From assembly GCA_963811105.1 (NCBI GenBank), contig CAWEPZ010000009.1:320001-384000 (forward strand): 64,000 bases of DNA, given 5' to 3'. The translations under genes were made by a program, and so were the position numbers. The stretch is from Candidatus Bathyarchaeota archaeon (lineage in GTDB: Archaea; Thermoproteota; Bathyarchaeia; Bathyarchaeales; Bathycorpusculaceae). The notes below the pieces were generated by a model. It was not told the DNA's origin, did not search any database, and saw nothing but the letters and a program-made list of their open reading frames with translations. Positions 520-62,972 of the stretch are shown one piece after another; the stretch's first letter is position 1; every line of letters begins with the position of its first letter.

Positions 520-3500
520 CTACTTAGCGGATTTCGCGTAAACTTCAACTTCGACCACTGGAGCTGTTTTTCCTAAGAACTTAGACAGCGAACCTTTCCA
601 TTTGGGGTTTGAGTTTGCAGTAAAGCCAACTGTTTGGGCAATGCCTCTCCACAGTAACGCTTTATCGTAATCTTTGGCATCTTGGGGCATGAATTCAAAG
701 ATTGATCGACTCGCTACAACCACAAGTTTCTTTTTCATTCTGGAGATTGCGACATTTATGCGGTTTAAGTTCAGCAGGAAATCGCTTTCTGTGCGTATAT
801 AGTCTGGGTCGCTTACAGTTGAAGATATTATTATGAAGTCGCCTTCTCCACCTTGGAAACGTTCAACCGTGTCAACCCGTACATTTTCGTAACCGTCAAA
901 CAACAAATTCTTGACTATACCCCGCTGAGCATTGTGCGGTGTAACGACACCTACACAATCGGAACGTACACTGCGAACTAACGAATCAACAATCTGCGCT
1001 TCAACTGGGTTTGATTGAAAACTCTCAGCTTGGTCATGAACAATTAAGACAAGAATGTTCTCTGGCGCCAAAACGACCTTCAATCCATCTGTCGCTGGTG
1101 CAGGACAAGCGAGAGTCTGCGTTTGGTCGGAGCGAAAATCGATTCCGTCTTTGTTGTACACCCATTCTTTTAGAAACTGCGCAACGACTTGGTGGCATCT
1201 ATGCGTTTCGCTTAGCCGTTCTGTTGGAATGGTAGCTTTATGCAATGATTTAACATGTTCGATTCCAAGGTCCTCTTGGCGTAGCAAGCGAAGGAAATCC
1301 ATGGCGGAGAGAAATGAAGCCATTTCTTCGATGGTTCGGCGGTCCTCTTTTTCCCAATTATGTGCTTGAATCGGTGGCAGTTGTCGATGGTCTCCTGCAA
1401 CCAGAATTTGAGCATTCTTTTCTACAAAGGCTCCTGACAGAATCAGTTCAGGAAGTCGCATCATGCTTGCTTCATCAACTACTAGTAAATCAAAATAGCC
1501 CTCGTCCCACTGTGGCTCCTTGCCGCCGATTTTCTTCATGATGCCATATAGGCCGGGAGGTGTCACGCACAAAACCAAAGGAAAATCATCAGTTGAATTA
1601 GAAACTAGTTTTTCTTGGCTTGATAAGGCATCTTTTAACTCAGCAACTACTTCTTCATCTTCATTGTAGTTAACGTATCTGACTCCGTCAATGCTTTTAC
1701 GTGGAGCATTATTGAGAACGCGGTAAATCCGTAGGTTCGCTAAATCGCTCCCGCCTTCTTTACAATAAGTTCGCCAAGACTTTGCAAGCTTACTAACAAA
1801 TTCATGAATCGCCTTATGGGTAGGAGCAACCATCAAAACACGACATTTGCCAACCGCTTTGTGGGCTGATATATGTGCAAGAACCGCGGATTGCAAGGTT
1901 TCAGTTTTGCCAGTGCCTGGGGGGCCTTGAAGCATAACAACCTGTTCTCTGCCAAAGACGCGGTCTATAAAACGATTCTGCTCCGGCTTAGGTGGTAAAC
2001 TGGAATGTTTAATCCATGTCAAGAAGCCCTGTGCATTTTCTTTGGATAATGCAGCGCGTTCTGAAGATTTGCTTGTTCCCTCCAAGAACCCTGTTAACAG
2101 GCAGTAGAGCTCGTTATTGGCTGCATAGTCGAGGCATTTTGCCGCTCTCTCTGAAATTATGTCATCGACTAAGTCATCTAAAATGTATTTGCGTCCCACT
2201 TCAAAGAGCTGCATGTGCTTGCTGTTTTTGGCTTTGTCTTTGTCAGTGGTTGGAAGATTATGCCAAGTGCTGTACCGCCTACTTTTGCCGCTAGGCCAAC
2301 TGACAACTTTGATGGATAACTCCATTTTGCGCAAATCAACCTTTTCTAATATGACACGGGCGGATTTTTCGACTTGGGCAGGTGACCTTTGATTTGCTTC
2401 CTCAAATTGACCCCGCTCATTAATTGATATTTCCGTCGCAACCATCCAATCGCCCGAACCTGAATCATCTGACCCCTTAACTCGACATGCGTTAACAATG
2501 GCGTCTGCTCTAGGCAAACCAAGCCCTTCATAAATCAACTTTCCCCGAATAACAAAATCCCGATCAGTCTCTTCAGCGCTGATGCATTCAAAAATCAATG
2601 ATCTTCCTGTAGCTACCCGCTGGCATGGGAGCAAAGCATAATGTTGGTAGACTTCTTGGCGTTTAGCAAAATATTCGAGGTCTAGGAATTCTCGGCAGCT
2701 TCTCTCCAGCGTCGAGGATCCTAAGGTGAAGTCGGGGATTTTTGGAATGTTTATTGGTTTTTTTCCTAACCTACGATTGCGTATATTTAGTGAGCGTTCG
2801 ATGGTTTCAAGAGCTAAACAGAGATTTTGGCTGAGCAGCATTAAGTCTTCGTCGCTGACTCTGCGGGTTTTATGGGGGTAATCGCACCACAGTCGCTTTT
2901 CGATCATTATTCTTTCGTGGCCATCAACTTGGCTTTTGTCAAGGTTACCTTTTGCTCCCCAAATATACTCAATAGGAATTTGGTTCCCAAAACGGGCCCG
3001 TGCTGGATAATACCCTTCTTTACTTCTAAAGTCGTCAGAACTAAGTATGAATGATATTGAACCAGATCCACTGCGCGTGTAGGGCAGTTCAAAGTTAAAG
3101 AAGCCATCACGGAAAGCCAAACGCATGTCTAGGCGTGATCCGTCTTTGCGGTTAACCGTCCATTGGTTAGCTTCAAAGTAGCAGCATTGCTTAAGAACTG
3201 GCAGAAGTCCCGTGCTGTGATAGCCGACTGCTTTGCGCAGCATGATTTCGTCTTGAAGGATGGAAAACATAGGTTGATCGATTGCTTGCCTAAGACCCAG
3301 AAGATCTTGGACAGCACGAGCAGTCTTCAGTGTAGAGTGGCGGCGTACTGCTTCCATCAAATGGTCCCGCTCTTGCCGCGTGTAGAAGTATAGATGGATT
3401 GGTGCTTCGTCTGGGCTTCCCACTTCCACAGCAATGCAATTAATGGCTTTAGTTAGCTCTGAAAAGAAAGCTTCCAGAAGATTTCTTTCTTCCTCTATGG

Positions 3501-4929
3501 CTTCCTTTTGCTCTTTTGGCAGGAACCTGACAATTTTTGAAACGCATATCTCTTTTCCATGGTATCTTGTGCAGCTTACTCTGGCGCTAATAATCGAAAT
3601 GATATTTAGCAGATAATCCCATTGAATATGAAAGTACACGCGCACCATGCCGTCAGGTCCAAAAGAAAGCGACGTATCTGCTCCTTCCTGAGGACTGTCC
3701 TCAGGCAGAGTTCCGTAACCAGTGCCAGTAAGCCAAGGCATGTATCTTACCTTATTAACGTACGGACTATTAGGACGTACTGTTGAGAGCATGAATTGAG
3801 CTCTCTGAATTAGCCTGTCCAGTTTGCCGCCGATAACAGGGTCAGATGATAGTACCTGAACTTTTTGTAGGTCGACAGCTGGGATTTCCTTGAAGTTATA
3901 TGGACGCAAATCCTCTGTCTTCGGCACTACTTTCAGTTTGGCTAGGTCCTCTAGCCGTAAAATTCCCTGTTGACTCAGAGCCTTCTGCTCGCCCCTTGTC
4001 AAGTTCAGCAATGTAATACTTTCGTTTTCAACTGCGCAGACAATACAACACTCGTTGTAGCCGCAGTTATCACAACGCCAAGAAAGCTGATACTCCACTT
4101 CGTTCACAGGTTTTTGGTGGATTCGGTAGAGTTCACCACTTTTACTGAGGAGTCTTTGGATATCTTGGATTAATGGTTCAAGCCTAAAAGAAGGAAGACT
4201 TTCAGGCTCAAGCTTATCCAAATCCGATTGCTTGTTGATAACTCCGCCTTCAAACTCAATTTTACATGCAACCTCGCCTAACGCCTGCGTGAGCAATAGT
4301 ACATAGATGGCAACTTGTATGCGGTGAGCTGTCTGCTCTCTCCAAGATGATTTTATCTCGAAAATGCGAACCTTAACTTTCCCATTTCTGTTAGGCCATA
4401 TACCGATCAAGTCGGCTATGCCTTTTATATCCCATAAACCGATACAACCCCTCATCGGAGCTTGATAAATCAGAACAGGCTTGTATTTTACATCGGGGTT
4501 AGCAGAAAAAGCGTTTTCAACTATCTGCCTGATTGCATCCAATGATTTTGGCCAAGCCCTTTCCCATCCTTCTACTTGCTTTTTAGGGTCATAACAGGTA
4601 AAGTCGTGATAGTCAGCAACTTTTGCTTTTAACTCCAAAACAGTTTTTTCTTCTAATTGTTTGCCGGCAGAAAACAACAATGGGCTTAACGGCTTATGGA
4701 AAGCTTCAGGCCACTTCCTTTTTTTCTCTTCAGTATCTTCAAACCTTAATTTAAAATAGCGAGGGCAGCAGTCAAAGCGAATGTATTCTGCAATTCCAGA
4801 TGCATCAAGCGAAGGCATTTTTTTGGTTGATTGGTCGGGCGAGGTTTTGCTTGGTTTCAGACGTCTTATGCCTTTTGAGTATGTTGGTCCGATTTCTTGT
4901 GCATCTGGATTGCCTGATTTCTCTTCCAA
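520..4929 (-). CDS. RecB/Cas4-like PD-(D/E)xK nuclease fused to an SF1B (Dna2/Upf1-like) helicase
   Basis: N-terminal GIADLIG..IFEIKSS..HRIQVAIY with Cys motifs CCPRYF and CDNCGYNECC. Helicase motifs: QGPPGTGKT, VDEASM, GDHRQLPP, TVERFQGGE, RINVAISRMK. Confidence 0.85.
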   Translation of the reverse strand: MEEKSGNPDAQEIGPTYSKGIRRLKPSKTSPDQSTKKMPSLDASGIAEYIRFDCCPRYFKLRFEDTEEKKRKWPEAFHKPLSPLLFSAGKQLEEKTVLELKAKVADYHDFTCYDPKKQVEGWERAWPKSLDAIRQIVENAFSANPDVKYKPVLIYQAPMRGCIGLWDIKGIADLIGIWPNRNGKVKVRIFEIKSSWREQTAHRIQVAIYVLLLTQALGEVACKIEFEGGVINKQSDLDKLEPESLPSFRLEPLIQDIQRLLSKSGELYRIHQKPVNEVEYQLSWRCDNCGYNECCIVCAVENESITLLNLTRGEQKALSQQGILRLEDLAKLKVVPKTEDLRPYNFKEIPAVDLQKVQVLSSDPVIGGKLDRLIQRAQFMLSTVRPNSPYVNKVRYMPWLTGTGYGTLPEDSPQEGADTSLSFGPDGMVRVYFHIQWDYLLNIISIISARVSCTRYHGKEICVSKIVRFLPKEQKEAIEEERNLLEAFFSELTKAINCIAVEVGSPDEAPIHLYFYTRQERDHLMEAVRRHSTLKTARAVQDLLGLRQAIDQPMFSILQDEIMLRKAVGYHSTGLLPVLKQCCYFEANQWTVNRKDGSRLDMRLAFRDGFFNFELPYTRSGSGSISFILSSDDFRSKEGYYPARARFGNQIPIEYIWGAKGNLDKSQVDGHERIMIEKRLWCDYPHKTRRVSDEDLMLLSQNLCLALETIERSLNIRNRRLGKKPINIPKIPDFTLGSSTLERSCREFLDLEYFAKRQEVYQHYALLPCQRVATGRSLIFECISAEETDRDFVIRGKLIYEGLGLPRADAIVNACRVKGSDDSGSGDWMVATEISINERGQFEEANQRSPAQVEKSARVILEKVDLRKMELSIKVVSWPSGKSRRYSTWHNLPTTDKDKAKNSKHMQLFEVGRKYILDDLVDDIISERAAKCLDYAANNELYCLLTGFLEGTSKSSERAALSKENAQGFLTWIKHSSLPPKPEQNRFIDRVFGREQVVMLQGPPGTGKTETLQSAVLAHISAHKAVGKCRVLMVAPTHKAIHEFVSKLAKSWRTYCKEGGSDLANLRIYRVLNNAPRKSIDGVRYVNYNEDEEVVAELKDALSSQEKLVSNSTDDFPLVLCVTPPGLYGIMKKIGGKEPQWDEGYFDLLVVDEASMMRLPELILSGAFVEKNAQILVAGDHRQLPPIQAHNWEKEDRRTIEEMASFLSAMDFLRLLRQEDLGIEHVKSLHKATIPTERLSETHRCHQVVAQFLKEWVYNKDGIDFRSDQTQTLACPAPATDGLKVVLAPENILVLIVHDQAESFQSNPVEAQIVDSLVRSVRSDCVGVVTPHNAQRGIVKNLLFDGYENVRVDTVERFQGGEGDFIIISSTVSDPDYIRTESDFLLNLNRINVAISRMKKKLVVVASRSIFEFMPQDAKDYDKALLWRGIAQTVGFTANSNPKWKGSLSKFLGKTAPVVEVEVYAKSAK

Positions 4930-54904: not shown

Positions 54905-56572
54905 TTATGCTTTCACTGTTGCTTTTTTAGCCATTTCTTCGGTTAGCATACCGACTAGTTGCCCGTTCTTAACTAAAGCTGCTCGCGTCATTCCTTTTTC
55001 TTTCATTAGTGACATAGCTGTCATCATTGATTCGTCAGCTTGAAGAATTAAAAGCGGTGTAAAGTTAAGGTCCTTTGCAAGTGTTTTCTTGAGGTCTCTT
55101 TGCTTCTCAGCTATCTCATTTAGAAGCTCTCGGTCATTGATTACTCCTATAGGCTTATGATTTTCAGTTATGAGAAGTGAAGTAACGCTATTTTGCATTA
55201 GTTTCTCCACAAGCTTAGCTACAGTATCAGTTGTTGAAACCTCAACTGCAGGAAGCTTGGTGCCGGCTCGGTTGCTGATTTCTGAAATGTCTATACCTCT
55301 CTTCCAAATATCATCAAGCATCTCACTTACTCTTTCGATTTGGCTAGGGTCTGTGGAATAGAATGTGTCAACTAAATAAAAGGCAGATTCACTTCCAAAA
55401 TCACTTAATGGAGGCATTTTAAACATGAACAGGTGCTTATTGTCCACAAGCATCATTGTTAGATAACTGATTGGGACATGTTTAACTTCGTAACGTGACA
55501 AAAGTCTTTGAGCTGGTTCAAGGTTGTCCAAATCGATTGATGCCATTACTCTAATTCTTAAGCCTTTTTTGAAGTACTTCAATAGCGGATCATCTTCCGC
55601 AAGACGGTTTATACTTTGGGATGTAGTGATTAACACTATGTCTTTTTTGGCACCTTCAAGAACCTTAGTTACTTTAGTCCACGCTTCCTCAACGCCTTTA
55701 ATAACAATTGTTTCGCCGATGGGTATTCCACTCTTCAACTCATCTATTCGCCTGGAAGCGTCAACGCCAGTTTGCCACATTTGCTCAAAAAAGGCTTTGA
55801 GAACAGAAATAAACATTTTATCGTTAATCCATAAGCCTTCATCTTCTAAATTCAAAACGGAAGCTTCGTTGCCAAAAGGTGCATACAAGATAGCCTCTTC
55901 TTCATCCTTAATTAGAAAGCGAGGGAAAAACTTTGAACTCATAGTGACATGACGAAGTCTAAAGTTCATTTTCCCTTCTGAAACGCTCTCATCTATTCTT
56001 TCAACAACTTTCAGGTTTTCAGGAGAAATGTCGGTTATAACTTGAAATTGGATAGCCCTATTTTCAGAAGCTGTGGCCGCTGAATCAAAAATTCCCGCAA
56101 TATCTTCTTGAACAAAACCCAAAGAAGTTGTTAAAACAATCACTTCCTTTTTCGATTCATCAATCATATTTAACATTTTTGAGTGAATCTTTTTCTTACC
56201 TGTAATAATTGAGAATTTGGCTACTGGATATTCTGATTCCGGAGCGCTTATAGATTGCCAAGCTGTTAAAAGGTCTTGTTTCTGATCGGTTAAGTTTTTA
56301 ACCTCATTCTCTTTTGTATTAATGAAGGAGCCCACTAAGGCTTCAAAAGGAACAATAGTAAAACGTGTGGGCCTTTCGAGGGTTGCTTCAATAAAGCCTT
56401 TTTCTTGAAGTTTCTTGAAAGTCCGATAAGCTTGAACTCGCTCCATCTTAAGCCGTTTAGCCACGAAGCTAGTAGATTGAACACCACTTTTGGCAAGAAA
56501 CATGTAAACTTGAATTTCCCGTTTTGAGAGACCAAGAATTTGTAAGAACTTGGTGACATCTTTCTCGCTCAT
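54905..56572 (-). CDS. TrmB-family regulator with tandem effector domains and a C-terminal CBS pair
   Basis: LGLSKREIQVY..KLQEKGFIE HTH; two similar effector-like domains (FLIKDEEE..FEQMWQTG and MMLVDNKH..DDIWKRG); CBS motifs KPIGVINDREL and QLVGMLTE. Confidence 0.85.
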   Translation of the reverse strand: MSEKDVTKFLQILGLSKREIQVYMFLAKSGVQSTSFVAKRLKMERVQAYRTFKKLQEKGFIEATLERPTRFTIVPFEALVGSFINTKENEVKNLTDQKQDLLTAWQSISAPESEYPVAKFSIITGKKKIHSKMLNMIDESKKEVIVLTTSLGFVQEDIAGIFDSAATASENRAIQFQVITDISPENLKVVERIDESVSEGKMNFRLRHVTMSSKFFPRFLIKDEEEAILYAPFGNEASVLNLEDEGLWINDKMFISVLKAFFEQMWQTGVDASRRIDELKSGIPIGETIVIKGVEEAWTKVTKVLEGAKKDIVLITTSQSINRLAEDDPLLKYFKKGLRIRVMASIDLDNLEPAQRLLSRYEVKHVPISYLTMMLVDNKHLFMFKMPPLSDFGSESAFYLVDTFYSTDPSQIERVSEMLDDIWKRGIDISEISNRAGTKLPAVEVSTTDTVAKLVEKLMQNSVTSLLITENHKPIGVINDRELLNEIAEKQRDLKKTLAKDLNFTPLLILQADESMMTAMSLMKEKGMTRAALVKNGQLVGMLTEEMAKKATVKA

Positions 56573-57494: not shown

Positions 57495-58193
57495 TCAAAG
57501 GTGTTGCGCTACAATCATAGCGTGTGCCTTATCATATGGCTCCAAATGCACAATTTCTTTCACATCAAAGCCTCTTTTACGCAATATGCCTGCTTCCTGT
57601 CGATAGACTGCATCTGGATCCATTGTTACATCGATGCTTTGCGATTTCACAGCTATCATAACCCAGCCTTCAGGTTTAAGAAAAACATCTGCATTGTCAG
57701 CTAACAATTTTGCTTGTTCAGGCTGAGCAACATCGCAGTAAATTGTATCTACTTTACCTGAAATGAACATGGCATATCTCTCGGGCATTCGAGCGTCTTC
57801 CAAAAGAGGAGAAATGTTTGGGCGGTATGTGGCAACGTTGTTGACTAAATCTCTGATTGATCGCTGAGCGAATTCAACACAGTAAACATGGCCAGTTTCA
57901 CCAACAATGTCGGAAACATGGCTAGGTGTAGTTCCAGAAGCTGCGCCTAAATAAAGCACTTTGCTAGCTGATTCTATGGGTACAGTTTGAACCCCTTTTA
58001 GAATGACGGCTGCAAGTTTGCTTCTGAACGCATCCCAAATTCGGTACTCTATGCCTTTGAACTTGACAAGACGCTCACCGTAAACGTTTAAGCCAGGCGT
58101 CAAGTTACGGGTAGCTAACCGTTGTGTTCCGTCTTCAAGGGTTGCTTGGTATATTTCTTTGAATTTTAGGTGCGGTTTAACCTTAACGGTCAA
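57495..58193 (-). CDS. flpA: Fibrillarin-like 2'-O-methyltransferase
   Basis: VYGE, RSKLAA, VLYLGAASGTTPSHVSD, DVAQP. Confidence 0.96.
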   Translation of the reverse strand: MTVKVKPHLKFKEIYQATLEDGTQRLATRNLTPGLNVYGERLVKFKGIEYRIWDAFRSKLAAVILKGVQTVPIESASKVLYLGAASGTTPSHVSDIVGETGHVYCVEFAQRSIRDLVNNVATYRPNISPLLEDARMPERYAMFISGKVDTIYCDVAQPEQAKLLADNADVFLKPEGWVMIAVKSQSIDVTMDPDAVYRQEAGILRKRGFDVKEIVHLEPYDKAHAMIVAQHL

Positions 58194-59488
58194 CGCCTTT
58201 CTCTTCTCCGATTCCTATCCCTGCGCGGTCCGCCGCGGTCTCTGAAAGGGCGTCCACCGCCTTCATGAGGCCTAAACGATCGCTCTCCGCCATCTTTACG
58301 TTCAAATGTTGGTCTTGGTTTAGATTCTTTTGGTGGAGGCGGCTCCTTGTACTTCTCTCGAATTTCGTCTAAACGTTTGTTAATTGCCTCTTTTAATTGC
58401 TCCCCAATATAGTGGCCTCCGAAAGCATCAGCTCTGGCAGCGATGGCTAGTTTTCCAGCGATCACTCTTGCGATTTTTCCTCTCTGCCATCTCTTAGCAT
58501 CATGCAGGAGTGTGTGTTGGAATATTAAGCCGTGTTTTGGCGGTCTTGCACCTGTTTTCAATGAACGGAACAGGGCTTTTTCTGCGCCTAAAACCTGTAT
58601 GGTGCTTGCTGGCCTCATAGCCAGGTTCTGCAAGCTTCCTGCAATAGCGATTAGGCGTGCTCCAAGCAGTGCTCCTGCAACCGTACGCACATTGGGGGCC
58701 ATTTCCTCCATGGTTCGGTCAACGTAATTCTCCATGTTCTTGCGCAGTTCATAAAAATCAAGTACGTTTTTGGCTAAAGACTGTATTTGTTCTAAGTCTC
58801 GTTCTGCGATGTCAGCACCCATAGATGATTCTGCTGCTTTCGCAACATGTTGGGCTCTTTCTTTAGGAATATTTTCTTTCTCTAAGCCTTCCATAGTATA
58901 GTTTTCTCTGTATCCTAAGTTCATTACAAGCCTAGAGTAGGTTTCATGTTTTTCGATTAAGCGGTCAAGCTCAGGGAAGTACACGCCATACCATTCTCTT
59001 AGTCTGCCCATGAACAAGTTGACTGTACGATCTAGATCATCCAGGGTCTGAATACCCTGTGCAATAATTAGATCTCTTTTTTCTGAGGCGCCTTTGATTC
59101 GCAGTTTGGCAAGTTCCATACTGACATTACGATTCCACAGGCTAAGCTCCTGCTCATCATTAACGAATCCTGATTCAAAAGCAACCTCATTCATGCGGGA
59201 GCGAAGAACTTCGGCATCGGCAGGTTTCGCTACTTCCACATTCACGTCCATTTTCCTTTGAATTTCTTCTGCCAAGTTGGCATTTTCAAAAAGGAAAGCG
59301 TCATAGCCCACATTTTTTAAGAGCGAAATTAATGAGAAAATATCATCGGACATCTTTCCGGCTTCAGCCTTAAGCAAGCTTCTTGCTGCTGCCTGAGGTT
59401 TTTTCGGAAACAATACCTTCTCAACTGACCTGTTTTTGTCGTCGAAGGCTACCACGCCGAAAGGGAACTGAATTATGAATGCTTTCAT
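58190..59488 (-). CDS. nop5: C/D box RNP protein Nop5 (Nop56/58)
   Basis: RLREWYGVYFPEL, PASTIQVLGAEKALF, PKHGLIF, RGKIAR; R/G-rich tail. Confidence 0.96.
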   Translation of the reverse strand: MKAFIIQFPFGVVAFDDKNRSVEKVLFPKKPQAAARSLLKAEAGKMSDDIFSLISLLKNVGYDAFLFENANLAEEIQRKMDVNVEVAKPADAEVLRSRMNEVAFESGFVNDEQELSLWNRNVSMELAKLRIKGASEKRDLIIAQGIQTLDDLDRTVNLFMGRLREWYGVYFPELDRLIEKHETYSRLVMNLGYRENYTMEGLEKENIPKERAQHVAKAAESSMGADIAERDLEQIQSLAKNVLDFYELRKNMENYVDRTMEEMAPNVRTVAGALLGARLIAIAGSLQNLAMRPASTIQVLGAEKALFRSLKTGARPPKHGLIFQHTLLHDAKRWQRGKIARVIAGKLAIAARADAFGGHYIGEQLKEAINKRLDEIREKYKEPPPPKESKPRPTFERKDGGERSFRPHEGGGRPFRDRGGPRRDRNRRRERR

Positions 59489-59725
59489 TTTTAGAGCCCC
59501 AATAAACTAACTATTGTCAACCTTTTAACTTAATAAACAGTTTTGTTGCCCTACGCATTAAAAACCGTATTTTCACATTAAGAAATTGAATGTAAGAGTA
59601 TTCAAGGCGCAATTTGATTGCTAATCTTGCACAAAGGTTGACTTGACTTTGACATACGTAAGTTTAAAGTCTGCCGTTAAATTATAGGTAGAGCATCGAT
59701 TTGGGAGCACAGGGGAATAGGGTTT

Positions 59726-61942
59726 ATGGTAAATCAACCACCGCATCGCGCACGCGGCGTAAAAGTACTCAAAGCCGTCTCATCACCACTTAGGTTGCAA
59801 ATCCTTAACCTGCTATTTGACAAAAGCGCTCTCTCTTACACTGAATTAATGAACCAACTCAAAATGAATCCAAGTCGAGATGCAGGTAGATTTGCGTACC
59901 ACCTCAAATTTCTATTGAAGGCAGATTTAATTGAGGCAGACGTTGAAGCAAAAAAATATTATTTAACTGACCTTGGCAAAATGGTTCTTGATGTCGCCGA
60001 CCGCGTGGAGAAGAAAGCGGTTAAACCAAGAGGAATGCTTGTTCGTACATCTCATCTGACACTGGAAGAGTTTGATGCAAACAAAATAGCAAATTCACTG
60101 ATAAAAGAAGCAAAGGTGCCAGTTGAGTTAGCTCAGAAAGCAGCGAAAGAAGCAGAAAAACGTTTAGTTAAATCAAAAACAAAGTATCTTACGGCTTCGT
60201 TAATCAGGGAAGTTGTGAATGGCATTTTGGTTGAAAAGGGCTATGAAGATTACCGTCATAAACTCACACGCGTCGGAATGCCCATTCATGAGGTAACTGC
60301 TTCAATAGAATCAAAAGACACACCTGTTGATTCATCAGCTTTAATTACAAAAGCAGGTCAATCCGTCCTTGGCGAGTACACGTTGCTTAATATTTTCCCA
60401 AGAGACATAGCCGACGCGCACCTCTCAGGCGCCATCCACATTAATGATTTAGGCACATGGATACTAAAACCCAACGAAGTTAGCCACGACCTCCGATTCT
60501 TTTTCAGAAATGGACTCAAACTTGACAATCCCTTCCAAACTTCAATGGATCCACCTGACAACCTTGAATCAGCCTTAGCGATCGCCCTTAACATTATTCT
60601 GCACACCAACAAAGAAACAAACAAAATGCAAACATGTAGCTACTTCAATGTTTTTCTATCTCCATTTGCAAAAGACGTTGACACCTCAAAAATAAAAGAG
60701 AATATGCGTTTGTTCATTTTAAACCTGAACCAACAAGCTGAAGCTACATTAGGACTTGAGCTCACAATTCCGAAATTAATGGCGGAGCAAGAAGCAACCG
60801 GTCCAAAAGGAAAAATTAGCGGTAAATACAGTGACTTTTCCCAAGAGATCCAACTCTTAGCATCTGTCATTCTTGAAGTTTACGCGGAAGAGAATGCCAA
60901 AAAGCCATTGCTTGGCCCGAAATTAGTTATAAGAATTAACAAGGATTCGTTTACAGATGAAAAAGCTAAAATTGCTCTCCTAAAAGCACATGGCTTGGCT
61001 GCGGAAAAAGGAATAATACACTTCGCAAACACCGCAAACAAAGATACAGAAAACGCGGTTTTTTCTGCTTCGGGAGTTAAGCTTGCTCCTGACGTAATTG
61101 GGGACTGGGAAACCGACACCCTACGCACTGGCTGTCTTGGTTGTGTAACTATTAATCTGCCGAGAATCACTCAGGAAAGTGAGAAAGACAAGAACAAATT
61201 TTTTGATCTAGTGAGAGAACGCTTTGAATTATCGGCAAGGGCTTTAGGAATAAAAAGCAACGCGTTAAAACAATTCGGGAAAAACTCCTTGCCCTTTCTA
61301 CTAAAAAACGGTAATGGAGACGTATATTTCAGGCTAGAAAATAGTTCACGCATAATTAATTTAGCTGGGTTTCGAGAAGCTATTGAGGCTTTCACAGAAA
61401 AAAGCATAGATTCTGAGGAAAGCCGCAAGTTTGCCGAAGAAATCGTCCAAAATATTTTGGCATTCAAACAAAAAATTGGCAGAAAACATGGAAAACGACT
61501 CTACGCTGTTATGCTAAGTAACCCGGATGCTTCTGAGCGCCTTGCTCAGTTGGATATTGATAGGTTTGGCATAGCAAAAGTGAAGTATTCTGGAACAAGA
61601 GAAAAACCTTACTATTCAACCGCTAAAAGATTCCAAGTTAAGGCTGGCGAACCCCTCAGCATACCCCCTGAAATAGTGGAGACTGCACAGAAAATGAAGG
61701 GTTTAAACGCGGGCGGCAGTTTCTGTATCCTTGATTTGGGAGATACCCAATTTAAGCCTGAACCTCTGATGGAGTTAACCCGACACCTAATTGAGAACCC
61801 AATCTTCGAATTCTTCACTTACAACCGCATAATCAGTTTCTGCGATAACTGCAAAAACAGCTGGTTTGGAACGCTTCATAAATGCCCATCTTGTGGGTCC
61901 ATGAGCAAACTCGCAACGTTTGATCGCTTTGCATCCAACTAA
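59726..61942 (+). CDS. ArsR-like wHTH + ATP-cone + degenerate class III ribonucleotide reductase (NrdD-like) fusion
   Basis: KAVSSPLRLQILNLL..FAYHLKFLLKADLI HTH; ATP cone VRTS..EEFDANKI..LTASLIRE; NrdD-like AHLSGAIHINDL and VTINLPRI; Zn ribbon CDNC..CPSCG. The catalytic Cys and radical-Gly motifs are absent. Confidence 0.85.
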   Translation: MVNQPPHRARGVKVLKAVSSPLRLQILNLLFDKSALSYTELMNQLKMNPSRDAGRFAYHLKFLLKADLIEADVEAKKYYLTDLGKMVLDVADRVEKKAVKPRGMLVRTSHLTLEEFDANKIANSLIKEAKVPVELAQKAAKEAEKRLVKSKTKYLTASLIREVVNGILVEKGYEDYRHKLTRVGMPIHEVTASIESKDTPVDSSALITKAGQSVLGEYTLLNIFPRDIADAHLSGAIHINDLGTWILKPNEVSHDLRFFFRNGLKLDNPFQTSMDPPDNLESALAIALNIILHTNKETNKMQTCSYFNVFLSPFAKDVDTSKIKENMRLFILNLNQQAEATLGLELTIPKLMAEQEATGPKGKISGKYSDFSQEIQLLASVILEVYAEENAKKPLLGPKLVIRINKDSFTDEKAKIALLKAHGLAAEKGIIHFANTANKDTENAVFSASGVKLAPDVIGDWETDTLRTGCLGCVTINLPRITQESEKDKNKFFDLVRERFELSARALGIKSNALKQFGKNSLPFLLKNGNGDVYFRLENSSRIINLAGFREAIEAFTEKSIDSEESRKFAEEIVQNILAFKQKIGRKHGKRLYAVMLSNPDASERLAQLDIDRFGIAKVKYSGTREKPYYSTAKRFQVKAGEPLSIPPEIVETAQKMKGLNAGGSFCILDLGDTQFKPEPLMELTRHLIENPIFEFFTYNRIISFCDNCKNSWFGTLHKCPSCGSMSKLATFDRFASN

Positions 61943-61946
61943 AAGC

Positions 61947-62972
<1,026 letters not shown>

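Follow-up and report, generated by a model that had tools for sequence, protein, structure and literature searches.

A catalytically dead paralogue of class III ribonucleotide reductase joined to a winged helix and an ATP-cone: a candidate nucleotide-sensing regulator of archaea

We present here a computational analysis of a gene of Candidatus Bathyarchaeota archaeon (assembly GCA_963811105.1), located in a 64,000-nucleotide (nt) stretch of contig CAWEPZ010000009.1 (positions 320,001 to 384,000, forward strand), hereafter called the window. At its positions 59726..61942 the window encodes a protein in which a winged helix-turn-helix (wHTH) and an ATP-cone precede the barrel and zinc ribbon of NrdD, the class III ribonucleotide reductase (RNR). 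The residues of radical catalysis are missing, the gene is under purifying selection, and its relatives are widely distributed and linked to genes of class III as well as class II RNRs. Judged from its sequences, the family is a catalytically dead, selectively retained class III RNR paralogue joined to a wHTH and an ATP-cone. Because the catalytic residues are gone, a DNA-binding head has been gained and a real reductase gene lies adjacent in many archaea, the protein probably regulates the supply of DNA precursors, a role so far unrecognised. In the specific form which we favour, with somewhat more than even confidence, it would be an analogue of NrdR, a transcription factor which senses nucleotides through its cone and acts on RNR and nucleotide genes.

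Results

Domain architecture

The open reading frame (ORF) codes for 738 amino acids (aa), starts with ATG and is intact, as confirmed by the ORF list and by independent contigs. An ArsR-like wHTH, an ATP-cone, an NrdD-like barrel and a C-terminal zinc ribbon had already been read in it by the first-pass annotation, made from the letters of the window, and all four were recovered with Pfam and alignments. The features, in window coordinates, are as follows.

59726..61942, plus strand: coding sequence for wHTH, ATP-cone, dead NrdD barrel (as predicted) and zinc ribbon (ORF list, Pfam, ratio of nonsynonymous to synonymous substitution rates (dN/dS), no indels)
59765..59989, plus strand: winged HTH, ArsR/SmtB-like, aa 14-88 (Pfam DUF7347, E 3e-7; HTH_5, PF01022, 27.5 bits, cut-off 22)
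within 59765..59989, plus strand: putative recognition helix G54-RFAYHLKFL-63, wing near Y78..G84
60038..60256, plus strand: ATP-cone of the 'VRTS' type, aa 105-177 (Pfam PF03477, 30.1 bits, cut-off 25.8)
60344..61924, plus strand: NrdD-type barrel, aa 207-733, predicted to be catalytically dead (Pfam NRDD, PF13597, E 2.2e-65; family profile against solved NrdDs)
61841..61894, plus strand: Cys4 zinc ribbon C706, C709, C720 and C723, kept (invariant in 27 of 27 family members)

The closest solved sequence to the wHTH is HlyU (E 0.004, over aa 7-81), and the NCBIfam model HTH_metalloreg (NF033788) gives 32.3 bits, under its cut-off of 55. As read from the translated sequence, aa 1-100 contain no Cys, so a metal site of the ArsR/SmtB kind is absent, at least by what we take to be the metal-ligand Cys/His motif of those regulators. 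With the NrdD equivalog TIGR02487 the protein scores 227.4 bits, under the cut-off of 326.35. The NrdR model TIGR00244 is not among its NCBIfam matches, and its N-terminus is a wHTH, not a zinc ribbon.

Loss of the catalytic residues

Residues were placed by three alignments: with the canonical NrdD of the same genome (MAFFT), with T4 NrdD (phmmer), and of a profile built from 27 family members with five solved NrdDs. The profile matched the latter with E-values of 4.6e-39 (9d3x), 2e-31 (8p23), 8.4e-31 (4u3e), 7.6e-31 (4coi) and 1.5e-30 (1h78). In NrdD the thiyl-radical Cys is found at the finger-loop tip, in a motif MGCR or MCCR (PMC9669993, in excerpt), and an NxN active-site flap is a further NrdD feature (PMC11226230, in excerpt). 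The corresponding positions of the window protein read as follows.

60317..60343, plus strand: position of the NxN flap, reading DTPVDSSAL without NxN (ENSNMS in the genome's own NrdD)
60476..60478, plus strand: E251, within KPNEVSHD, at the position of the beta-A cysteine, T4 Cys79 (T4 NrdD alignment; the genome's own NrdD reads AYC)
61070..61081, plus strand: finger-loop tip S449-G450-V451-K452 in place of M-G-C-R, without the thiyl Cys (profile against 9d3x, 'PMGCR')

Thus the finger-loop Cys and the N-terminal Cys, both reported as lost by the first-pass annotation, are indeed absent: SGVK occupies the MGCR site in the own-NrdD and profile alignments, and E251 stands at T4 Cys79 in two alignments. 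The MAFFT register of the finger loop differs by one residue, and there is a Cys in neither register. The glycyl-radical loop is missing as well, as had been claimed; the protein stops 15 residues past the zinc ribbon, its C-terminus being ...CPSCGSMSKLATFDRFASN, without RxxGY. The TPxES segment, rightly described as degenerate, is aligned to SNPDAS (NPDAS). At the specificity site, where T4 NrdD has the Gln Q114 (PMC12662201, in excerpt), the window protein has N289. The losses of Cys and Gly hold in the alignments to T4 and to archaeal NrdD alike.

The same losses recur in homologues. The family alignment comprised 98 rows. Besides the query and the genome's own NrdD it included 96 representatives, those of the 150 listed whose length lay within 600-830 aa; the other 54 were dropped. 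Rows bearing the HTH were set by the motif G[KRS]FxYH (68 rows) and compared with eight canonical ones.

Beta-A Cys: HTH-bearing 2/68, canonical 8/8
Finger [GC]C[RK]: HTH-bearing 1/68, canonical 8/8
NxN flap: HTH-bearing 1/68, canonical 8/8
RxxG[YFW]: HTH-bearing 3/68, canonical 8/8
Beta-A Cys, finger Cys and Gly motif together: HTH-bearing 0/68, canonical 8/8
Zinc ribbon CxxC..CxxC: HTH-bearing 60/68, canonical not counted separately

Not one HTH-bearing representative keeps the radical triad, and the family is under purifying selection. Deeper members from Bathyarchaeia retain a tail of about 35-40 aa which aligns to the glycyl-radical domain and has A, S or K in place of the Gly; in the window's clade and in the ammonia oxidisers this tail is gone. 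In the ammonia oxidisers the barrel is far more degenerate, with an NRDD Pfam match of E 4e-23 over its C-terminal half only.

Intactness and selection

In one independent metagenome contig, which covers positions 59711-62000, there are 49 substitutions and 0 gaps; an indel over the gene was seen in no run against independent contigs. A frameshift restoring RxxGY, named in the first-pass annotation as what could overturn its reading, was looked for in these contigs and none was found; since they show no indel, no frameshift conceals the motif. Whole-gene dN/dS against four orthologues amounted to 0.125, 0.080, 0.075 and 0.076. These closer orthologues were used, more distant pairs having given saturated dS. 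By region the values were distributed as follows.

HTH region: dN/dS 0.018-0.032 (the lowest)
ATP-cone region: dN/dS 0.031-0.152
Barrel region: dN/dS 0.086-0.161

Among the 90%-identity clusters listed, the closest 120 have lengths of 697-773 aa and identities of 73-100%, and DUF7347 is found in 118 of them. Selective loss instead of decay, as proposed at the outset, is thus upheld by the dN/dS values, by the absence of indels and by the recurrence of the losses in the family.

Product names given to family members vary among 'ArsR family regulator', 'HTH domain protein' and 'anaerobic ribonucleoside-triphosphate reductase'. The last of these, frequent in public annotation, is what speaks for a decaying pseudogene or for a true nrdD distorted by assembly or annotation. 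We give this explanation next to no credence: selection, the lack of indels, the uniform length of the clusters listed and the conservation across the phylum already refute it.

Conservation is concentrated in the N-terminal part. Among 27 diverse members (25-83% identity) 27 of the 38 invariant columns fall within residues 1-186, and R23, L30, G54, F56, Y58, H59, Y78 and G84 of the wHTH are invariant. This pattern points to the HTH and the ATP-cone, rather than the barrel, as the putative working module. It disfavours the original proposal that the RNR scaffold itself is the sensor; neither the NxN flap nor the specificity-site Gln is kept. The intact frame, the constraint on the barrel and its preserved motifs ADAHxSG, INLPR, GLxEA, RLAxLD and GG could alternatively reflect a cryptic enzyme, which would use the RNR barrel for another, non-radical nucleotide reaction. 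This seems very improbable to us, as the finger loop and flap offer no conserved catalytic candidates, their positions vary across the family, and the kept motifs occur also in canonical NrdD as parts of the fold.

The ATP-cone

Cone residues were mapped via the genome's own NrdD to StNrdD numbering and from there to the residues discussed in the excerpted part of PMC12662201. The residues concerned are, in Ec, the hairpin Lys9-Arg10, helix-1 Lys21/Ile22 and the helix-3 3'-OH sensor His59.

V106: equivalent to Ec Lys9 / St Lys19; invariant Val in 27 members
R107: equivalent to Arg10 / Arg20; invariant
K120 / I121: equivalent to Lys21 / Ile22; K or R, Ile invariant
R161: equivalent to His59 / Gln79; invariant
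Y176 / R177: equivalent to helix-4 Tyr101 / Arg102 of St; nearly invariant and invariant, respectively

The cone therefore keeps equivalents of Arg10, Lys21 and Ile22. With the cone of a catalytically intact neighbour NrdD it shares 35% identity in a gap-free alignment (E 9e-15). Since an intact NrdD has the same cone, the 'VRTS' type is a subtype of real enzymes and not a wreck.

Family and distribution

A search of 1.84 billion representatives returned 1700 matches at E <= 0.001 and 328 at <= 1e-30. The recognition-helix pattern was found in at least 597 stretches of species genomes, and 594 of these proved to be relatives; the best 80 matches of a search of genome contigs were close Bathyarchaeia only. 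Of the 201 genomes in the window's class, 180 have a match at E <= 1e-20; by a hand count these divide into 137 with a strong full-length match (best E about 1e-77 or stronger) and 43 whose match is only at the level of canonical NrdD. With a query named Nitrososphaerales, matches at E <= 1e-10 were obtained in 212 of 301 genomes of the phylum, 24 of them (hand count) with a best E weaker than 1e-40. All 43 genomes of family f33, Nitrosopumilaceae, match, each of them once, and families f34, f42, f43, f47, f48, f49 and f50 pooled give 0/66 in the same phylum scan. Exact look-up of the Nitrosopumilaceae proteins gave Nitrosotalea, Nitrosopumilus, Nitrosotenuis and Nitrosopelagicus as sources; further source names of the family are Methanosuratincola, Aigarchaeota and Bathyarchaeia.

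In a tree of the barrel (74 rows) all 42 HTH-bearing rows lie on one side of a branch with a Shimodaira–Hasegawa-like approximate likelihood ratio (SH-aLRT) support of 95, and the 32 rows without HTH on the other. Twelve of the representatives without HTH (P0192, P0205, P0226, P0227, P0235, P0236, P0237, P0244, P0249, P0260, P0261 and P0269), NrdD-like proteins mostly with one or two ATP-cones, also missed radical residues in the motif scan and are nested among canonical NrdDs in the tree. Several stop at about position 500 of the NRDD profile, so they may be truncated or split genes and not dead paralogues.

Separately, the atlas contains clusters with DUF7347 and NRDD (ATP-cone in 26% of members), for which the commonest phylum is Promethearchaeota, and clusters with HTH_24/HTH_5 and NRDD, for which it is Nanobdellota. 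A 493-aa Nitrososphaerota cluster has DUF7347 and an ATP-cone without an NRDD match. Such clusters hint at a broader range and at further erosion of the barrel; as unverified leads, they may indicate the family in Asgard and DPANN lineages. One Bathyarchaeia genome (G085, contamination figure 3) carries two full-length copies of the fused gene, C13:10822-13020 and C11:679-2880, and these could result from duplication or contamination.

Linkage to reductase genes

Neighbourhoods were compared at 40 loci of Bathyarchaeia. Canonical nrdD follows directly 3' on the same strand at 12 of them; five of the 40 loci had been picked for adjacency already seen, so the unselected figure is 7/35. At loci L036 and L037 the gap between fused gene and nrdD is only 32-39 nt. 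These canonical nrdD genes encode a CC finger loop and RITGY, and one of them scores 553 bits with TIGR02487.

In Nitrosopumilaceae the gene adjoining the fused one is nrdJ, of class II, in 19/19 genomes, 18 times directly downstream on the same strand and once divergent. This nrdJ bears an ATP-cone, scores 735 bits with TIGR02504 (cut-off 400) and lies about 200-440 nt after the fused gene. In five complete genomes of this family the fused gene is the sole NRDD match, and NrdR was found in 0/5.

Immediately beside the canonical nrdD which follows the fused gene there are small ORFs (88-101 aa) resembling thioredoxin or glutaredoxin (L035:13379-13651, L036:7116-7385, L050:12845-13120, L048:10552-10857 and L056:4268-4534). 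They would fit a thiol-dependent class III RNR.

The close co-orientation with nrdD at L036 and L037 would also suit a non-catalytic partner, the dead barrel forming heterodimers with active NrdD and modulating it post-translationally, with the HTH secondary. Activation or inhibition by a dead paralogue is a precedent known from some other enzymes. NrdD enzymes are dimeric and have effector sites at the interface (PMC11226230 and PMC12662201, both in excerpt), and the barrel dN/dS given above means that constraint on it persists. Such a partner is, however, hard to reconcile with the genomes where the family occurs with no other NrdD match (5/5 complete Nitrosopumilaceae genomes, and a single match in 43/43), with the peak of conservation in HTH and cone instead of barrel, and with the much more degenerate barrel of the ammonia oxidisers. 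We regard it as quite unlikely.

Linkage to pyr genes and other neighbours in the window

The gene immediately downstream in the window is the following.

61947..62885, minus strand: pyrB-like carbamoyltransferase, convergent tail-to-tail neighbour (ORF; recurrent neighbour of the family)

This confirms the abutment to pyrB noted in the first reading. At 27 of the 40 Bathyarchaeia loci the fused gene has a pyrB-like gene downstream of it, on the opposite strand, and pyrI is present at 14; one member of the pyrB cluster matches Pfam OTCace_N/OTCace and has PyrI beside it. Among 15 Thermoproteota loci outside Nitrosopumilaceae, pyrI or pyrB is adjacent in six (L089-L093, L102) and canonical nrdD in one.

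These counts, together with an NrdR encoded by the window's genome, where the fused gene abuts pyrB and not nrdD, speak for a transcription factor without RNR specificity, which would link pyrimidine synthesis (pyrBI), or a wider regulon of replication and nucleotide genes, to the nucleotide pool and leave nrdDG in that genome to NrdR. Against such a role, pyrB is convergent and has no promoter in common with the fused gene, and the neighbour in 19/19 Nitrosopumilaceae genomes is nrdJ, not pyr; an operator is defined in neither case. We consider it unlikely, although it retains some weight.

Further upstream, on the minus strand of window 57495-59488 and divergent from the fused gene, two ORFs were named, from reading their translations, as fibrillarin-like (232 aa) and Nop56/58-like (432 aa). 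At 54905-56572, minus strand, three genes upstream of the fused gene, a regulator of 555 aa combines a wHTH and an effector domain, both of the TrmB type, with a CBS pair at the C-terminus; it is a further archaeal transcription factor of the ligand-sensing kind.

The reductase operon of the same genome

The window's genome (96.65% complete) has an nrdR-nrdD-nrdG operon on another contig (L001, G000:C11:581393-586120, ORFs 701-1147, 1144-3270 and 3282-3959). Its nrdR scores 155.6 bits with TIGR00244 and its nrdG 184.6 bits with TIGR02495; its nrdD reaches 1082.8 bits with PRK08270 and 577.8 bits with TIGR02487, and has the finger loop SMCCRLR and RVVGYLRP. A separate RNR gene with the radical motifs is therefore present, and nrdG, correctly said not to adjoin the fused gene, sits with this canonical nrdD. 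The genome contains no class I or class II RNR barrel and three ATP-cones in all.

NrdR was found in 37 of the 201 genomes of the class, namely in the window's genome, in 26/27 of family f1, to which the window belongs, and in 10/43 of family f18, with 0/130 in the other families. This distribution reflects few independent events, and f1 holds both NrdR and the fused protein. In f18, according to the table read by hand, 33/43 genomes have canonical-level matches only (about 1e-21 to 1e-34) and none stronger. The cone of the genome's own NrdD is of the classical KR type, and in the tree this NrdD shares a long branch with one orthologue of family f5. Lateral acquisition of the nrdR-nrdD-nrdG operon is suggested.

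Promoter and candidate operators

Upstream of the fused gene the following elements were located.

59638..59653, plus strand: TTGAC TTGAC T TTGAC, words at 59638, 59643 and 59649; present, not conserved
59658..59669, plus strand: GTAAGTTTAAAG, element resembling a B recognition element (BRE) with TATA box; conserved in the genus (eight congeneric upstream regions aligned)
59684..59696, plus strand: ATAGGTAGAGCAT, conserved block about 20 nt past the TATA box, over the expected transcription start; in most of eight congeners

The three tandem TTGAC words of the first-pass annotation are thus real as letters; as a conserved operator they do not stand. The pattern TTGACTTGAC with at most one mismatch occurs twice in the window against 5.2 expected and eight times in the 3.49-Mb genome, and seven congeneric promoters contain 0-1 TTGAC each. 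Being neither above chance nor conserved in congeners, the triplet was rejected as an operator.

Common to eight congeneric promoters is GTTAAGTTTAAA, followed about 20 nt further downstream by AATAGGTAGAGCACC over the expected start site. The ATAGGTAGAGCAT block is a possible auto-operator or, alternatively, an initiator or element of the 5' untranslated region. As a regulon marker the post-TATA block was rejected: ATAGGTAGAGCAC with at most two mismatches has 37 matches in the genome, none near nrdR-nrdD-nrdG.

In Nitrosopumilaceae (19 loci: L085-L088, L104, L184-L197) the density of the word GATC[ACT]AAA is 6.3 per kb in the region preceding the fused gene and 3.5 per kb in the one separating that gene from nrdJ, against 0.27 per kb in other intergenic DNA and 0.30 per kb in coding DNA, a 13- to 23-fold enrichment of a word defined post hoc on the same regions of kin genomes. 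In counts, 45 copies fall in 9.0 kb of the two relevant regions and 7 in 25.8 kb of other intergenic DNA; 5/19 upstream and 9/18 intergenic regions have none. We treat the word as a lead, an operator candidate and not a finding.

Discussion

Proposed mechanism and points against it

In the scheme we favour, an NrdD paralogue would have lost every residue of radical chemistry and gained an N-terminal ArsR-like winged helix, retaining the ATP-cone, the zinc ribbon and the barrel scaffold, the latter probably for dimerisation. We infer DNA binding, nucleotide binding, a direction of regulation and a list of targets: the cone would sense the adenine (deoxy)nucleotide pool and thereby alter the binding of the winged helix to promoters, those of RNR genes, of its own gene and perhaps of pyrBI. 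The NrdR-like role suggested in the first reading gains from the dead, retained paralogue and from neighbourhoods with two RNR classes; the TTGAC words as an operator have to be given up, and conservation speaks against the barrel as its working module.

Several observations weigh against this scheme. The equivalent of Ec Lys9 is Val and helix 4 is shorter by seven residues than in a classical cone, so binding of ATP or dATP is not to be assumed. An operator was not found, and around the nrd operon the conserved promoter block does not recur. In f1, the family of the window, the fused gene is not beside an RNR gene, and RNR control in the window's genome may belong to the NrdR of its nrdR-nrdD-nrdG operon. 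As to pyrB, its convergent orientation means that it shares no promoter with the fused gene. Neighbourhood conservation among relatives may in part be inherited synteny, and the barrel tree comes from a quick search (LG+G4, unrooted) in which long branches were flagged.

A wider reading, to which we assign a little less than an even chance as a whole, would make the family the missing archaeal counterpart of NrdR, a master regulator of deoxynucleoside triphosphate (dNTP) supply derived from a class III reductase that is catalytically dead. Its origin would be single, from the NrdD still encoded alongside it in Bathyarchaeia. The dead copy would then have outlived its parent, being kept by aerobic ammonia oxidisers, with no other NrdD match, upstream of the B12-dependent nrdJ. 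Finally, ATP and dATP would be read by the variant cone, gating transcription of RNR genes, and perhaps of pyrBI, across Thermoproteota.

Significance

NrdR is rare in archaea (PMC9110341 and PMC12176259, both in excerpt) and the ATP-cone is essentially restricted to RNRs and NrdR (PMC11226230, in excerpt). For the control of RNR expression in archaea the family is a testable candidate, present in cultured, globally important ammonia oxidisers. Should its function be as we propose, it would illustrate clearly how a transcription factor can take on a pseudoenzyme as its ligand-sensing or scaffold module, and how a regulator can persist once the parent enzyme has gone. The reductase label carried by some members wrongly implies anaerobic dNTP synthesis when the metabolism of aerobes is reconstructed.

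Comparison with known systems

The family is large, archaeal and without a name. A literature search in PubMed Central (PMC), with subscription journals outside its scope, returned no account of an HTH-ATP-cone-NrdD-like protein, of DUF7347, or of a dead NrdD in Thaumarchaeota or Bathyarchaeota. New here is the linkage of the fused gene to canonical nrdD in Bathyarchaeia and to class II nrdJ in Nitrosopumilaceae.

With NrdR the fused protein shares an ATP-cone coupled to a DNA-binding module, RNR-adjacent genes and a Cys4 zinc ribbon; by analogy, the logic would also be the same, the cone reading the nucleotide pool and DNA binding changing in response. It differs in that its DNA-binding module is an ArsR-like wHTH, whereas that of NrdR is an N-terminal zinc ribbon. 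Its own ribbon is C-terminal and inherited from NrdD. It is 738 aa long against about 150 for NrdR, carries a whole dead NrdD barrel and does not match TIGR00244. NrdR binds NrdR boxes at RNR promoters in dependence on nucleotides; on the side of the fused protein, the observed tie to RNR promoters is the adjacency of its gene to nrdD and nrdJ.

Class III NrdD has a homologous 10-stranded barrel, the same zinc ribbon and, in the active neighbouring enzymes, the same type of ATP-cone. The fused protein departs from it in having no beta-A Cys, finger-loop Cys, NxN flap, TPxES or glycyl-radical loop, in its extra wHTH and in scoring under the equivalog cut-off; it is found, moreover, in aerobic ammonia oxidisers, without NrdG-dependent chemistry. 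ArsR/SmtB regulators, with HlyU as the nearest solved one, have a similar N-terminal winged helix of the HTH_5 type; the fused protein, unlike them, lacks Cys in aa 1-100 and has an ATP-cone and a dead enzyme as effector module.

Finally, dead-paralogue regulators and enzyme-derived transcription factors likewise keep an enzyme fold for binding or as a scaffold after catalysis is lost; deoxyhypusine synthase of trypanosomatids, for example, is reportedly activated by a dead paralogue. In the present family, unlike those regulators, the dead enzyme has a DNA-binding domain attached to it and persists in lineages where no other NrdD match was found.

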